From the NCBI GenBank assembly GCA_016700135.1, contig CP065004.1, forward strand, positions 60,001 through 92,000: a stretch of DNA of 32,000 bases, written 5' to 3'. This stretch comes from Candidatus Saccharimonadota bacterium. GTDB taxonomy: Bacteria > Patescibacteriota > Microgenomatia > UBA1406 > GWC2-37-13. A program made the position numbers and the translations under genes. Numbering within the stretch: the stretch's first letter is position 1; each line of letters opens with the position of its first letter. Below are positions 8,184-19,123 of this stretch, piece after piece. Under the pieces are notes generated by a model, which worked only from the letters and a program-made list of their open reading frames with translations, had not been told where the DNA came from and did not search any database.

Positions 8184-8211
8184 ATTGAAAAATGAATTAC
8201 AAGAGGATAAT

Positions 8212-8329
8212 TGGCGGAGAGGGAGGGATTTACTGCTCGAAAAATCGTGAAGGTTGCTCCCAGCATAAACTTCGAATCCTACCCATCTTTGACAAGCTTA
8301 GTGCTGCAAGCACTGGGATTGGTGAAGTG
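8212..8329 (-). other. pseudo-3'-half module derived from tRNA-Ser(ACU): hairpin plus expanded T-loop plus an exact copy of the tRNA 3' end
   Basis: 17-nt exact direct repeat gcggagagggagggatt at 8214-8230 and 8329-8345. In RNA sense the module reads CACUUCACCAAUCC, hairpin CAGUGC-UUGCA-GCACU, then ...GAAGUUUAUGC..., then AAAUCCCUCCCUCUCCG followed by CCA. Confidence 0.6.
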
Positions 8330-8416
8330 CGGAGAGGGAGGGATTCGAACCCTCGGTGGTTTTGACACCACGGCGGTTTAGTAAACCGCTGCACTCGGCC
8401 ACTATGCGACCTCTCC
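8330..8416 (-). tRNA. tRNA-Ser, class II, with apparent anticodon ACU (A34)
   Basis: Hand fold:
- Acceptor 5' strand GGAGAGG, then UC
- D arm GCA-UAGUGGCCGAG-UGC, then A
- Anticodon arm GCGGU-UUACUAA-ACCGC
- Long variable arm CGUGGUGUCAAAACCACC
- T arm GAGGG-UUCGAAU-CCCUC
- Acceptor 3' strand CCUCUCC, discriminator G
- No encoded CCA. Confidence 0.85.
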
Positions 8417-11326: not shown

Positions 11327-11411
11327 AGGCGGATATGGAATTATTAAGTAAAGAAACTAACTTTAATATACGCCTTGTGACAACTGAATTCAATATGAAG
11401 ATGTGATGTAG

Positions 11412-11523
11412 GAAATGCGGAGAGGGCGAGATTTCCCACGTCGCTTTCGCTCCTCTGGATAAACTTCTCATCTCGCCATTCTTCGCCAACCCCAGTGCTT
11501 TCAGCACTGAACTTGCCGAAATG
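11412..11523 (-). other. pseudo-3'-half module derived from tRNA-Ser(UGA)
   Basis: 22-nt exact direct repeat gaaatgcggagagggcgagatt at 11412-11433 and 11518-11539. In RNA sense the module reads CAUUUCGGCAAGUU, hairpin CAGUGC-UGAAA-GCACUG, GGGUUGGCGAAGAAUG, GCGAG, a 41-nt loop AUGAGAAGUUUAUCCAGAGGAGCGAAAGCGACGUGGGAAAU, then CUCGC CCUCUCC G. Confidence 0.6.
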
Positions 11524-11608
11524 CGGAGAGGGCGAGATTCGAACTCGCGGTCCCTTGCGGGACATCGGTTTTCAAGACCGACGCACTAGGCCACTATGCG
11601 ACCTCTCC
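11524..11608 (-). tRNA. tRNA-Ser(UGA), class II
   Basis: Hand fold:
- Acceptor 5' strand GGAGAGG, then UC
- D arm GCA-UAGUGGCCUAG-UGC, then G
- Anticodon arm UCGGU-CUUGAAA-ACCGA
- Variable arm UGUCCCGCAAGGGACC
- T arm GCGAG-UUCGAAU-CUCGC
- Acceptor 3' strand CCUCUCC, discriminator G
- No encoded CCA. Confidence 0.9.
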
Positions 11609-12014
11609 TGTACTAGCTGTTAGCGATTAGACGTTAGCTATTAGATTTTACTTTGTTAATTAAACCGTTCAATAATTTACCAACTTCGTTTATTTGATCT
11701 TCAATTTTACTATTCTCCTTTTTAAATAGAAAGCCTGCTATCTTTAAACAACCTAAAGTTTCGAACAATGATTTTCTTGCAATATACAAATATCTCTTAA
11801 ACTCTTTATCATTCTGAGACCCGGAGCCTTCAGCAATATTTAAGGGAACGGAAGTGACGGATCTTCTTATCTGATCTTTTAAACTATGATCATTAATACT
11901 CTCGGAAAACAGGTATACATTCCTTACCAATTCAAGAGATTTTTGCCACACGATCAGTTTTTCAAATTTGTACATCTCTATAGCTAATTGCTAAAAGCTA
12001 ATAGCTAAAACATG
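11609..12014 (-). other. IVS-like element: a long imperfect stem of TAGCT-rich arms (11609-11640 and 11976-12014) enclosing the four-helix-bundle ORF, lying between tRNA-Cys and tRNA-Ser
   Basis: The RNA 5' arm is GUUUUAGCUAUUAGCUUUUAGCAAUUAGCUAUAG and the 3' arm is UAAUAGCUAACGUCUAAUCGCUAACAGCUAGUAC. By hand alignment they pair at about 25 of 34 positions, in UUAGCU/AGCUAA blocks. Confidence 0.6.
11634..11975 (-). CDS. four-helix-bundle protein (23S rRNA intervening-sequence protein / Avd-like family)
   Basis: 113-aa ORF: MYKFEKLIVWQKSLELVRNVYLFSE...LKDQIRRSVTSVPLNIAEGSGSQNDKEFKRYLYIARKSLFETLGCLKIA. This matches the characteristic LxVWQKS...QxxRAxxSIxxNIAEG...F.xFLxIAxGS.xE pattern of that family. 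Confidence 0.85.
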   Translation of the reverse strand: MYKFEKLIVWQKSLELVRNVYLFSESINDHSLKDQIRRSVTSVPLNIAEGSGSQNDKEFKRYLYIARKSLFETLGCLKIAGFLFKKENSKIEDQINEVGKLLNGLINKVKSNS

Positions 12015-15524: not shown

Positions 15525-15601
15525 TGAGCGGTGGAAGGGACTTCCCGCCTCAGCGGGATAAACTCCCCCTCGACCTCCCCGCCGTGGCGGGGCGTTCTAC
15601 C
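15525..15601 (-). other. pseudo-3'-portion of tRNA-Gly (D-loop to 3' end) with a replaced anticodon arm and an expanded T-loop
   Basis: The RNA reads GGUAGAACG, hairpin CCCCGC-CACG-GCGGGG, AGGUC, GAGGG, a 27-nt loop GGAGUUUAUCCCGCUGAGGCGGGAAGU, CCCUU, CCACCGC, U, CA. Three blocks are identical to the real tRNA: 15593-15601=15896-15904, 15567-15576=15869-15878, and 15525-15542=15847-15864. Confidence 0.65.
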
Positions 15602-15845
15602 GTTTCTTATCTATTAACTTTTTAAAACCCTTCCCGCCTTTATATGATTTGATTTGTAACTCTCTACGATAAGCTGTTGCTCTATCGGGATATTCTTCTG
15701 TATAGATCACAATAAAGGGACCTTTATTTTTTAATGAGTTGGTCTTATTGGAATTATGTTCGTTTAACCTACGTGGTAAATCGTTAGTAGAACCAATATA
15801 ATACTTGCCTGTAATCGTCGACTGAAGAATATAGACAGTATACAT
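15597..15845 (-). CDS. small GIY-YIG (URI-domain) nuclease
   Basis: The ATG at 15845 gives MYTVYILQSTITGKYYIGSTNDLPRRLNEHNSNK...YRRELQIKSYKGGKGF (GIY/YIG, R, E, N signature). The ORF-track extension to 15890 reads through tRNA-Gly and is rejected. Confidence 0.85.
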   Translation of the reverse strand: MYTVYILQSTITGKYYIGSTNDLPRRLNEHNSNKTNSLKNKGPFIVIYTEEYPDRATAYRRELQIKSYKGGKGFKKLIDKKR

Positions 15846-15848
15846 CTG

Positions 15849-15921
<73 letters not shown>

Positions 15922-15999
15922 AATTTTTAGCTGTCAGCTATTCGCAACTAGCTATTAGAATCCAGTAGCTAAAAGCTAATGATTTAAGAGCTAATAAAG
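15922..15999 (-). repeat. TAGCT-rich imperfect palindromic spacer between tRNA-Phe and tRNA-Gly (ORF-less IVS-like hairpin)
   Basis: Contains tttagctgtcagctattcgcaactagctattag ... agtagctaaaagctaatgatttaagagctaataaag. The outer arms (atttttagctgt / gagctaataaag) and the inner TAGCTA blocks are complementary. Confidence 0.5.
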
Positions 16000-16072: not shown

Positions 16073-16154
16073 TATCTTAGCTGTTAGCTTTTCGTCATTA
16101 GCTTTTAGATAAATATCTAATTGCTAAATGCCAATAGCAAAGAGCTAAACAAAG
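16073..16154 (-). repeat. TAGCT-rich imperfect palindromic spacer between tRNA-Ile and tRNA-Phe (ORF-less IVS-like hairpin)
   Basis: gttagcttttcgtcattagcttttagat-aaat-atctaattgctaaatgccaatagcaaagagctaaac. The reverse complement of the right arm (gtttagctctttgctattggcatttagcaattagat) aligns with the left arm. Confidence 0.5.
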
Positions 16155-17868: not shown

Positions 17869-19123
17869 ATGAAAAAAAGTCACAACAGTCCTTCTAACAA
17901 TAATCGCCCTCCTTGTAGTAAACACTATACGAGCATCATCGGCACAAATTGGCGGTCAGATAAATGGCTATCAGTGCGTCACTGCCGAGAATCGCTGGAA
18001 AACTGAAAACGATGCTACTGCAACACTTCCAAGCGGATATACGTTTGAATCTATCGTTGTTAAAGCAGGTCAGGGATGTATTCAGGTATATCCAACAAAC
18101 ACTGCACCTACTTGCTATCAAGTGAATATCAACGGCAATACTGTTACGGTAATAAAAATTGGAGATGGACCTGCGTGCCAAGATATCTCTCATCTTGAAG
18201 GAACATACGGTTTGAGCGGTCCGAGCGCGACCCCCACTCCAACCCATACACCGACGGACACACCCATTCCGTCAAATACGCCTACTAATACTCCTGAGCC
18301 GAGTCCGACATATACACCGACTCCGATAAGAGAGACTCCGACACCTACTCCTACAAAAGATGAAGAAGAAGGGCCAAGTCCGACACCGACAAATACTCCC
18401 ACTCCTGAAGAGGAAGAAGGAAATACTCCTACCCCGACCAAGACACCGGCACCTACCAATACGCCTACTCAAGGACCCACGAATACCCCCGGTCCGGGAC
18501 CGACAAACACACCGGGACCAAGTCCCACAAACACCCCAGGACCGACAAATACGCCGGCACCTGAAACATCAAATCCTGTCGTACAGGGTGTGACACGAAC
18601 AAGTACTGCACAGATTTTAAGTGCTGAAGACAACTTCAATCCGATCGTTCTCGGACTCAAAAGATCCTTCGGAGGACAAGTACTCGGTGCTTCAACGTTC
18701 CCGAAAACCGGAGCTGAAGATTCAGTTGAAGAAAAGCTTCCTTCAGGAAACGTTGAGATTGAGAATACCACACTGACAATTCCGGCAATCGGAGTAAACA
18801 GACCTGTTTATCAGGGAGGGAAACTGGGAGATATGCTGGTAGTCGGTGATAAAGAAATATTAAAAGCGGAAGATTTTCAAAATGTTTATTACGGTCACAA
18901 TACCCCAGAAACACTCGGTGCAATCAGTTATCTGTCATACGGAGACAGTATCATTGTGCAGGAAAAGGGATCCGTTTCCGTTTATAAAGTAACTTACAAA
19001 CAATACATCAACGGGTATGCCGAAATGGATCGGTATGTGAATGATAATAAACTTACTCTCATCTCCTGCGCACTTCAAAATCAGGATATCCGCGTTATCA
19101 TTACCGCTGAAAAAGTAAACTAA
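17869..19123 (+). CDS. secreted sortase-domain protein (signal peptide, small 4-Cys domain, long Pro/Thr linker, sortase fold); the ATG is out of frame because of an A7 tract
   Basis: ORF track entry 18122..19123 (GTG start). The same frame is open back to 17873 and encodes KKVTTVLLTIIALLVVNTIRASSAQ, a classic signal peptide, but contains no ATG, GTG or TTG. The ATG at 17869 is in the +1-shifted frame. Sortase motifs are TLTIPAIGVNRPVYQG, YYGHN (His), LTLISCA (Cys) and IRVIITAE (Arg). Confidence 0.75.

Follow-up and report, generated by a model that had tools for sequence, protein, structure and literature searches.

SegB, a free-standing GIY-YIG homing endonuclease encoded in the tRNA gene cluster of T4, reportedly cleaves the tRNA region with co-conversion of the flanks, and a 2026 paper describes it as driving segmental amplification of the tRNA locus (PMC2330249; PMC13096335). 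The cassettes that we describe here resemble SegB and other T-even GIY-YIG genes in that a nuclease gene lies outside any intron or intein, among tRNA genes, and their tandem arrays are reminiscent of SegB-driven amplification. They differ in that the predicted cassette protein has 80 aa, consists of the catalytic domain alone, and falls in the UPF0213/SLX1 clade; in that the ORF is fused base-to-base to the tRNA and the flanking partial cognate copies carry conserved GC hairpins; and in being chromosomal (CPR, Bacteroidota, other bacteria) and essentially absent from viral contigs. Integrase islands and prophages at tRNA 3' ends, like the cassettes, regenerate an intact tRNA and leave the displaced 3' copy as a direct repeat, and the modules studied here do have tRNA 3'-end direct repeats, exact over 22, 17, and 18 nt. 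However, the cassettes contain no tyrosine or serine recombinase, the element measures 0.1-0.4 kb, cassette duplications may span the 5' part of the tRNA as well (position 1 to the T-loop), and hairpins systematically alter the duplicate. REP/REPIN sequences and their RAYTs share with the cassettes short hairpins rich in GC, in some cases next to a conserved tetranucleotide, a link to a small nuclease-type gene, and compensatory stem variation. RAYT, in contrast, is an HUH/Y1 enzyme where the cassette gene encodes a GIY-YIG protein, and REPs are scattered between genes in hundreds of copies, whereas the cassette hairpins are restricted to pseudo-tRNAs that belong to a cassette. SLX1, which requires SLX4 and acts in repair, cleaves branched and stem-loop DNA. 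Full-text searches found no report that ties UPF0213 proteins to tRNA genes or hairpin-marked pseudo-tRNAs and no description of a tRNA-fused GIY-YIG ORF with hairpin-swapped tRNA copies, and a 2006 phylogenomic survey of GIY-YIG proteins mentions tRNA solely for a TrmH fusion; the cassette family is very widespread and apparently undescribed.

In the window (the whole 32-kb stretch of DNA analyzed), three tRNA genes have, downstream, a truncated copy of the tRNA's 3' part that includes an exact direct repeat of 17-22 nt (Table 1), and the other five tRNAs have no copy longer than 10 nt inside 700 nt. The locus of tRNA-Gly(GCC) is a complete, evolutionarily constrained cassette of intact tRNA, ORF, and pseudo-3' tRNA. 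The ATG of the GIY-YIG ORF lies 2 nt past the tRNA 3' end, and its stop codon, TAG, falls within the D-arm remnant of the pseudo-tRNA, GGTAGAACG. This remnant is followed by a hairpin in place of the anticodon arm, the variable region and T-stem 5' strand, a T-loop insertion, and the T-stem and acceptor 3' strands; the same anticodon-arm replacement is found in L002, L004, L010, L024, L033, L045, L057, and others. An earlier reading made from the sequence only had placed a module directly after each tRNA, which holds at the two Ser loci and fails at Gly, where the ORF separates tRNA and module. The Gly cassette with its ORF is present in both genomes available, that of the window and a relative, between which the module is 97.5% identical (L081), with a single change in the 42 nt of its non-tRNA parts, and the adjoining intergenic DNA 85%. 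The ORF and its ortholog differ mostly by synonymous changes, 14 of 18 differences being at third codon positions. At L014, the ORF lies on the other side of the same tRNA-Gly.

Table 1. Features of the three tRNA loci in the window
Feature	Coordinates	Strand	Basis or remark
tRNA-Ser(ACU), intact copy	8329..8416	minus	ARAGORN and Rfam
Ser(ACU) pseudo-3' module, ORF-less	8212..8328	minus	read directly; repeat; alignment to tRNA
Ser(ACU) hairpin CAGTGC-TTGCA-GCACT	8300-8315	minus	read directly
Ser(ACU) module parts	T-loop remnant TTCGAA; TTTA 8266-8269; insert to 8231; 17-nt repeat 8214-8230	minus	
Ser(ACU) direct repeat, exact core 17 nt	8209-8230 vs 8324-8345		spacing 115 nt
tRNA-Ser(UGA), intact copy	11523..11608	minus	ARAGORN and Rfam; variable arm and T-stem unlike the closest relative's allele
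Ser(UGA) pseudo-3' module, ORF-less	11412..11522	minus	direct repeat; folding; alignment to tRNA
Ser(UGA) hairpin CAGTGC-TGAAA-GCACTG	11493-11509	minus	read directly
Ser(UGA) module parts	GCGAG 11472-11476; TTTA 11460-11463; 22-nt repeat 11412-11433	minus	
Ser(UGA) degenerate T...A stem-loop	11434-11459	minus	
Ser(UGA) direct repeat, exact, 22 nt	11412-11433 = 11518-11539		spacing 106 nt
Promoter-like site TTGAAT-17-TATATT, for the downstream 230-aa gene	11365..11393	minus	consensus scan; past the Ser(UGA) module
tRNA-Gly(GCC), intact copy ("T") of the Gly cassette	15848..15921	minus	ARAGORN and Rfam; 74/74 identical in relative L001/L081
GIY-YIG nuclease ORF, 82 aa, UPF0213/SLX1-like	15597..15845 (249 nt)	minus	Pfam PF01541, E = 4.9e-18
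Gly pseudo-3' module	15525..15605	minus	read directly, aligned to tRNA; 79/81 identical in L081
Family hairpin CCCCGCC-ACG-GCGGGG	15577..15592	minus	exact replacement of anticodon-arm positions 27-43
TTTA-tailed hairpin TTTA-TCCCGC-TGAG-GCGGGA, T-loop insert	15543..15562	minus	with the preceding GGAG, the earlier reading's GGAGTTTATCC
Gly direct repeat, exact, 18 nt	15525-15542 = 15847-15864		spacing 322 nt

Residues 1-68 of the 82-aa protein are covered by PF01541, the catalytic domain only, and the separate DNA-binding domain of I-TevI and Seg proteins is absent. In line with membership of the GIY-YIG superfamily (GIY and YIG motifs with the catalytic Arg, His, and Glu), Y5, Y16, G18, R26, H30, and E50 are invariant in an alignment of 35 sequences. 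The closest relatives with solved structures are SLX1/UPF0213 (YhbQ-like) proteins: profile comparison with the PDB gave 1zg2 (9e-13), 1ywl (4.5e-10), SLX1 entries (~2e-5), and I-TevI (1mk0, 2e-3), which places the predicted protein in a UPF0213/SLX1-like clade, nearer to these than to I-TevI-type enzymes. The substrate range of SLX1 would fit recognition of a hairpin or a cloverleaf by the cassette nuclease. With 6,464 clusters (50% identity, E <= 1e-10), this is a large family, and hosts of the fetched loci include CPR/Patescibacteria, Bacteroidota, Omnitrophota, Zixibacteria, Lentisphaeria, and others. Viral contigs yielded only distant GIY-YIG relatives (<=43% identity), with a same-strand tRNA in 0 of 25 loci. 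In a tree of the ORFs, grouping follows the type of tRNA.

The repeats, the hairpins, and a common motif confirm that all three tRNA genes have a cognate pseudo-3' module, as first proposed. The motif, GRAGTTTATSC, is matched exactly at three places in the 32 kb and at no other, each within a module (chance expectation ~0.06 by our own estimate), so its restriction to modules within the window stands. Two anatomical details are revised: the D-arm, described as missing from all copies, retains its 3' part (GGTAGAACG; AGTGC), and what was taken for a 41-nt T-loop is more aptly seen as extra sequence inserted at the boundary of T-loop positions 57 and 58, with native A58-N59-T60 retained. The insertion comprises (A)AG, TTTA, and a stem-loop closed by T...A. 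The CCCGC...GCGGG hairpin occurs twice in the 32 kb, both times within the Gly module; the Ser modules have neither an ORF nor the canonical CCCGCC hairpin. Because of their architecture, the common TTTA-T...A insertion at the T-loop 57|58 junction, and locus L004, we class the Ser loci with the Gly cassette, as ORF-less derivatives or footprints of that type of element, an assignment that we hold to be probable jointly with the overall reading given below. In L004, a GIY-YIG cassette at tRNA-Asp is followed by a GAGAAGTTTATCC...GGAAG|TCCCGTC module, and the 57|58 junction is also found in L023, L005, and L065. The two Ser modules align end to end and, being ~60% identical over their full length, could be paralogous copies of one tRNA-plus-module unit rather than two separate insertions.

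The orthologous site of the Ser(UGA) module in the closest relative (L083) is empty. The adjoining tRNA-Ser(UGA) is a replaced allele: of the 41 positions that follow the anticodon arm, 13 differ from L083, although the two genomes have 100% identical tRNAs for Gly, Phe, Ile, and Ala. We rejected the idea that the interior of the module is the displaced 3' half of an L083-type ancestral allele, since 1116 of 2000 shuffles score as well. A metagenome scan with the conserved 31-nt flank of Ser(UGA) gave 0 matches. At Ser(ACU), the relative's contig stops 100 nt past the upstream methyltransferase gene, and a homolog search with the downstream 359-aa protein returned only itself.

We fetched 160 loci (80 genome and 80 metagenome) via the protein alone, and a same-strand tRNA abuts the ORF in 139 of them. 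This is the case for 72/80 genome loci, with either 0-56 nt between the end of the tRNA and the ATG or the tRNA 5' end overlapped by the terminal 10-23 nt of the ORF, and the metagenome loci replicate it (abutting tRNA in 67/80, hairpin in 74/80; none of the 80 has an opposite-strand tRNA abutting the ORF). At least one cognate pseudo-copy was found in 66 loci, and copies on both sides in 25, a partial copy usually lying on the far side of the ORF or of the tRNA. Most commonly, a 5'-side copy begins at tRNA position 1, and a 3'-side copy runs as far as the 3' terminus of the tRNA. A conserved GC hairpin, YCCCGCC...GGCGGGR, interrupts an arm or loop of the pseudo-copies or takes its place; its density is 4.4/kb within 200 nt of the ORF versus 0.28/kb elsewhere. 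It is this hairpin that is the general family signature; the status claimed for GRAGUUUAUSC was overstated, as outside the window the exact motif occurs in only 2 of the 160 loci, the ortholog L001 and L004, and it is made up of the T-loop junction and a form of the hairpin that has a TTTA tail. Four metagenome matches to the motif are one unrelated sequence. The broader proposal, a family of modules with stems matched to the local tRNA and one constant motif in common, fits the comparative data. In L045, L002, and L039, the pseudo halves together make one complete hairpin-tRNA, whose acceptor and T stems carry compensatory changes relative to the intact tRNA, and therefore one copy of the pair was imported. 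Hairpin-marked units are arrayed in tandem in L049, L052, L023, and L078. That the hairpins keep blocks of tRNA/pseudo-tRNA identity too short for recombination was considered and dismissed, many loci having at least 30 nt of uninterrupted identity.

Direct repeats of a tRNA 3' end are the classical signature of integrase-mediated integration and the Ser loci have no ORF, as would be expected if the modules were att remnants of integrase islands, or slippage-derived tandem duplications of tRNAs, unconnected to the GIY-YIG gene. We find such ordinary decay very improbable. The repeats are just 106-322 nt apart, too close to accommodate a recombinase, neighboring ORFs are not recombinases, and the sole ORF between any pair of repeats is the GIY-YIG gene, in agreement with the sequence-only reading, which had set classical integration aside. 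Moreover, the RAG-TTTA-T...A insert at T-loop 57|58 is common to the three tRNA loci of the window and L004, and the Gly copy is embedded in the cassette type of 139/160 loci.

A second alternative, raised at the outset, is that the modules are structured RNAs co-transcribed with the tRNA, acting as tRNA-like processing marks before the next mRNA or as decoys that engage tRNA-directed nucleases or the enzymes of tRNA 3' ends. Module and tRNA always share a strand, swaps of arm for hairpin preserve a cloverleaf-like geometry, and the non-tRNA parts of the Gly module have changed little relative to the intergenic DNA; conservation of the hairpins between two genomes could indeed also reflect a host-level or RNA-level function. 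Folding gives a divided picture, the Ser(UGA) module being more stable than its shuffles (z = -2.86), Gly intermediate (z = -1.39), and Ser(ACU) no better (z = 0.09). An Rfam search of the window at the gathering score matched the eight true tRNAs only, no module reaching that score for RF00005 or any other family and nothing meaningful appearing on the modules at E <= 10; in 20 related loci the tRNA model alone matched at the gathering score, including three weak matches to pseudo-tRNA copies. The acceptor/T minihelix is what RNase P and RNase Z use, and the copies cannot form it because one acceptor strand is missing. The Ser(UGA) module is missing in the closest relative, and past it lies a promoter-like site for the next gene, conserved in L082 and L083. 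Mismatches in hairpin stems do not have the excess of G.T over C.A of an RNA (5 vs 10, in small numbers), TTTA-tailed hairpins occur in both orientations, and tandem arrays with variable truncation points resemble turnover at the DNA level. On these grounds we judge the processing-mark or decoy proposal to be quite improbable.

The hairpins themselves could be the mobile units, as in REP/RAYT systems, with the GIY-YIG gene as their single-copy mobilizer and redundant tRNA copies merely tolerating GC hairpins, some of them TTTA-tailed; insertions would be seen in redundant copies because those into functional tRNAs are purged. Several features accord with this: the stem sequence is conserved across phyla with loops of 3 to >40 nt, stems vary in a compensatory manner (TCCCGCC/GGCGGGA, TGCCGCC/GGCGGCA, TTCCGCC/GGCGGAA), insertion sites are many (acceptor stem, D-loop, anticodon loop, and T-loop), both TTTA-hairpin and hairpin-TAAA forms exist, and some loops contain long perfect palindromes (L027, L025). 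Nevertheless, the hairpins are not dispersed, as their density away from the ORFs and their confinement to the Gly module within the window show, and only ~10 of 200 distinct hairpins have a TTTA/TAAA tail. The exact swap of a 17-nt arm for a 15-17-nt hairpin is not a simple insertion, and insertion sites are common to related cassettes (L025, L077, L080), which suggests that the hairpins are inherited along with the cassette and were not inserted independently each time. We therefore consider autonomous hairpin mobility unlikely.

The explanation that we favor, and regard as probable, is that the modules are hairpin-marked partial tRNA duplicates from selfish, tRNA-nested cassettes built around a GIY-YIG nuclease of ~80 aa, which would spread by homology-dependent insertion. 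The Gly cassette, the layout of 139/160 loci, and the empty Ser(UGA) site fit the earlier suggestion that a tRNA-targeting GIY-YIG element left the modules as footprints or as non-autonomous derivatives. Because it has no promoter or leader of its own, is always co-oriented, and is butted against tRNA sequence, the ORF would probably ride on tRNA transcription and processing for its expression. Spread may occur by nuclease-stimulated, homology-dependent insertion, of the homing or Campbell type, with tRNA-derived segments as putative homology arms; insertion would therefore regenerate one intact tRNA and leave a truncated duplicate. The element's GC hairpins, occupying the duplicate's D-arm, anticodon arm or loop, and/or T-loop (57/58), would disable it, and are probably also recognized by the structure-specific nuclease. 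Two points speak against this explanation: the intact tRNA copy stays and would be a target too if the nuclease cut tRNA sequence, and a catalytic-domain-only protein of 82 aa is unlike characterized homing endonucleases.

A further reading, which we think doubtful, has the hairpin-marked pseudo-tRNA act as targeting module for a minimal nuclease of 80 aa: the tRNA-matching part would specify the target, the GC hairpin would serve as a protein-binding handle, and the whole, together with the intact tRNA, would form a natural cleave-and-rescue gene drive. The tRNA-matching part would act as a DNA homology arm or a transcribed guide; the intact copy would sometimes be imported, and the drive would act on essential tRNA genes. 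If this were true, the cassettes would constitute a new mobile-element class, its targeting guided by RNA or by structure. The mechanism favored above, if correct, would give a selfish gene a compact route into an essential, universally conserved target with survival of the host, and the family could be a source of very small programmable or structure-specific nucleases.

For annotation, pseudo-tRNA fragments and tandem arrays beside tRNAs in metagenome-assembled genomes are not to be equated with assembly noise, and tRNA alleles can be replaced horizontally together with a cassette. Gene callers often stretch ORFs of this kind into the tRNA.

Partial pseudo-3' tRNA copies (modules) follow three of the eight tRNA genes that ARAGORN and Rfam place on the minus strand of the window, as the sequence-only reading had proposed, and direct-repeat search recovers the duplicated 3' end of each of the three tRNAs (see table); for the remaining five, any copy within 700 nt is 10 nt long or shorter. 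The motif that this reading gave as common to the modules, GRAGTTTATSC, has three exact matches in the 32 kb, all of them inside modules, and the hairpins it named are present. The Gly module does not directly adjoin tRNA-Gly: an 82-aa ORF lies between the two, whose weight the reading underestimated while being right about modules and repeats.

The ORF encodes a GIY-YIG nuclease (PF01541, E = 5e-18) that groups by sequence with UPF0213 and SLX1, not with I-TevI, and that keeps all the catalytic residues invariant in the family. Its ATG lies 2 nt past the 3' end of tRNA-Gly, and its TAG stop falls in the D-arm remnant of the Gly module, GGTAGAACG. Many database homologs are annotated as 100-130 aa with a GIY-YIG match beginning at residue 20-50, and gene callers appear to extend such ORFs back into the adjoining tRNA or pseudo-tRNA; the mechanically called ORF in the window, with a TTG start, shows the same extension.

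We collected relatives by protein alone, and in 72 out of 80 loci from species-representative genomes the ORF is abutted by a same-strand tRNA, which either lies upstream, with 0-56 nt between its end and the ATG (UP), or has its 5' end overlapped by the last 10-23 nt of the ORF (DOWN). Read directly, the eight exceptions are contig ends (L016, L040, L056, L060), ORFs with pseudo-tRNA sequence only beside them (L055, L077, L012), and a run of N (L006). In an independent set of 80 metagenome loci we find an abutting tRNA in 67 and the hairpin described below in 74, with no opposite-strand tRNA among those abutting the ORF, and a control set of distant viral GIY-YIG genes (25 loci) is free of same-strand tRNAs. 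The tRNA type also structures the ORF tree (neighbour-joining on 80 residues) into Pro, Ser-GGA, Tyr, Gly/Thr, and His/Ile. The tRNA-abutting arrangement is thus a trait of the family, which comprises 6,464 clusters (50% identity, E <= 1e-10). At L086, where the nuclease has its closest viral relative (43% identity), a tRNA-Ala lies 37 nt upstream on the opposite strand.

Partial copies of the same tRNA adjoin the ORF or the intact tRNA at 66 loci, on both sides in 25. By block mapping, which is noisy, the commonest 5'-side copies run from tRNA position 1 to the variable region or T-loop, and the commonest 3'-side copies from the D-arm or its vicinity, often the D-loop, to the last tRNA base. 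Nearly all copies carry a conserved GC hairpin, YCCCGCC-N3-5-GGCGGGR, with the variants CCACCGCC...GGCGGGG, which has a bulged A, and TGCCGCC...GGCGGCA; its stems vary in a compensatory manner, and its loops are free, from 3 to >40 nt. The hairpin either takes the place of an arm, namely the whole anticodon arm at positions 27-43 (Gly, Thr, His, Ile, Asp) or the D-arm (Pro), or it is inserted into a loop, alone or as a tandem pair; the loops concerned are the anticodon loop (Ser, Tyr), the D-loop, and the T-loop, there between positions 57 and 58. It occurs at 4.4/kb up to 200 nt from the ORF vs. 0.28/kb elsewhere. Some loci carry tandem arrays of hairpin-marked units: L049, for example, has 4 x 68 nt ahead of tRNA-Pro, and L023 has three pseudo-3' Ser(UGA) modules, in each of which one hairpin pair sits in the anticodon loop and another in the T-loop. 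Such arrays comprise two to four (or more) partial tRNA units and are placed directly up- or downstream of the intact tRNA. In L045, L002, and L039, the two flanking pseudo halves add up to one complete hairpin-tRNA that differs from the intact tRNA by compensatory changes in the acceptor and T stems, which indicates that the two copies are different alleles, one of them from outside.

The window has two such hairpins, both in the Gly module: the canonical one in place of the anticodon arm, and a TTTA-tailed one in the T-loop, TTTA-TCCCGC-TGAG-GCGGGA, followed by native A58-G59-T60. Both Ser modules have the same T-loop junction, (A)AG-TTTA-T...A / AAT-T-stem, with degenerate stems, so that GRAGTTTATSC is the junction, the TTTA tail, and the first bases of the hairpin taken together; the same form occurs in another genome at a tRNA-Asp downstream of a GIY-YIG cassette (L004). 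The two Ser modules align end to end, including CAGTGCT...AGCACT and GAAGTTTAT, sequence found in neither tRNA, and are therefore related by descent, while the final 17-22 nt of each are local tRNA sequence. One of the two tRNAs with an ORF-less module, tRNA-Ser(ACU), has A34, which is unusual in bacteria, whose AGY codons are as a rule decoded by tRNA-Ser(GCU). Another ORF-less case is a pseudo-5' tRNA-Ser with two D-loop hairpins directly upstream of an intact tRNA-Ser (L085); the sole GIY-YIG ORF on that contig is of a different, YhbQ-like subtype, with no adjoining tRNA.

Features in the window and in comparison loci
Feature	Locus	Position	Strand	Detail
tRNA-Ser(UGA) repeat	window	11412-11433 = 11518-11539	-	22 nt exact; direct-repeat search
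tRNA-Gly(GCC) repeat	window	15525-15542 = 15847-15864	-	18 nt exact; direct-repeat search
tRNA-Ser(ACU) repeat	window	within 8209-8230 / 8324-8345	-	17-nt exact core; direct-repeat search
tRNA-Ser(ACU)	window	8329-8416	-	
GIY-YIG ORF	window	15597-15845		82 aa
Mechanical ORF call	window	15597-15890		TTG start
tRNA-Ser(UGA) 3' half	window	11523-11575	-	compared with L083 1-55
PF05635/TIGR02436 ORF	window	11634-11975	-	
Heptamer arrays	window	11613-11646, 11982-12008, 15927-15979, 16077-16148		
Tandem repeats	window	18242-18561	+	in ORF 18122-19123
Hairpin-marked arrays	L049	1100-1390		
Hairpin-marked arrays	L052	930-1400		
Hairpin-marked arrays	L023	1840-2240		
Hairpin-marked arrays	L078	680-850		
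Hairpin-marked arrays	L018	1140-1400		
Closest viral relative, tRNA-Ala	L086	1389-1464		
Pseudo-5' tRNA-Ser	L085	1-140	-	
YhbQ-like GIY-YIG ORF	L085	2656-2928		
Heptamer array	L085	2540-2650		ahead of small ORF

The closest relative (MAG GCA_964504235.1) carries the orthologous Gly cassette of tRNA, ORF, and module (L001/L081). Between the two genomes tRNA-Gly is identical (74/74), the Gly module matches at 79/81 positions, the ORF at 92.8% (third codon positions account for 14 of 18 changes), the downstream gene at 93%, and the adjacent intergenic DNA at 85%. The non-tRNA parts of the module have a single change in 42 nt, in a loop, and by this comparison the cassette is alive rather than decaying. 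At tRNA-Ser(UGA) the relative has an empty site (L083), where the tRNA runs straight into the sequence found beyond the module in the window; a further relative has a tRNA 3' fragment only at the module position (L082). Simple deletion between the repeats cannot account for the difference, since 13 of 41 positions 3' of the anticodon arm (variable arm and T-stem) differ between the two tRNA-Ser(UGA) genes, with compensatory changes in the T-stem, while tRNA-Gly, Phe, Ile, and Ala are 100% identical. The 3' half was therefore replaced in at least one lineage, in what looks like horizontal replacement of part of the gene.

The empty site also weakens the reading that the modules act purely at the RNA level, as do the lack of any Rfam match, the poor folding of the Ser(ACU) module (z = 0.09) and unremarkable folding of the Gly module (z = -1.39), the absence of one acceptor strand from the module copies, and a conserved promoter-like site after the Ser(UGA) module. 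The same reading is weakened by the hairpin stems, in which G.U-type mismatches are not in excess, and by the TTTA tail, which is present on a minority of hairpins and occurs in both orientations (TTTA-hairpin or hairpin-TAAA). Integrase-type att remnants are excluded on size and gene content.

In the general layout of the family, the ORF stands between two copies of the tRNA, one and only one of them intact. The ORF always has the orientation of the tRNA sequence and is fused to it on both sides, its ATG taking the CCA-proximal A, or its stop U8-A9-G10 or the D-loop, which suggests expression from the tRNA transcript. Homology-dependent insertion with pieces of the target tRNA as homology arms, through repair of a double-strand break from a donor or through a circle in a Campbell-type single crossover, would produce this layout: an arm from position 18 to the 3' end would give the UP form, and one from position 1 to about 57 the DOWN form. 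Because its arms are tRNA sequence, such a cassette could enter any genome with that tRNA, which fits the tRNA-type clades of the ORF tree. The hairpins would disable the spare tRNA copy and, since their stem sequence is conserved across phyla, are probably also the recognition site of the SLX1-like, structure-specific enzyme. That the hairpins are themselves the mobile units, as in REP/RAYT elements, overlaps with this insertion model and seems to us improbable as an alternative to it. The Ser modules may be ORF-less derivatives, propagated as such or duplicated with their tRNA; their putative connection to the nuclease is architectural.

Of the systems already described, three come nearest. 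The first is that of the free-standing GIY-YIG homing endonucleases, among them T4 SegB, which lies in a tRNA cluster (PMC2330249) and was recently linked to segmental amplification of a tRNA locus (PMC13096335); the others are integration of the integrase type at tRNA 3' ends, and REP/RAYT elements. All lack the combination seen here, in which a nuclease consisting of the catalytic domain only is fused to tRNA sequence and partial duplicates of the tRNA have arms replaced by one conserved hairpin. Our full-text searches turned up no description of this arrangement, although one may still exist.

Between tRNA-Cys and tRNA-Ser(UGA), the window has an ORF for a four-helix-bundle "23S rRNA intervening-sequence" protein, with TTAGCTAA-like heptamer arrays on either side. 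These arrays also occupy the Ile-Phe and Phe-Gly spacers (11 matches vs. 0.37 expected), and are indels, as these spacers are only 9-13 nt in the closest relative; a second small type of cassette in tRNA clusters may have left them as footprints. Similar arrays occur ahead of a small ORF in L085 and downstream of a pseudo-tRNA in L024. Elsewhere in the window, tandem 18-24-nt CCGACACCGACAAATAC-like repeats (families D1, D3, D4) lie within an ORF, making its protein repetitive.
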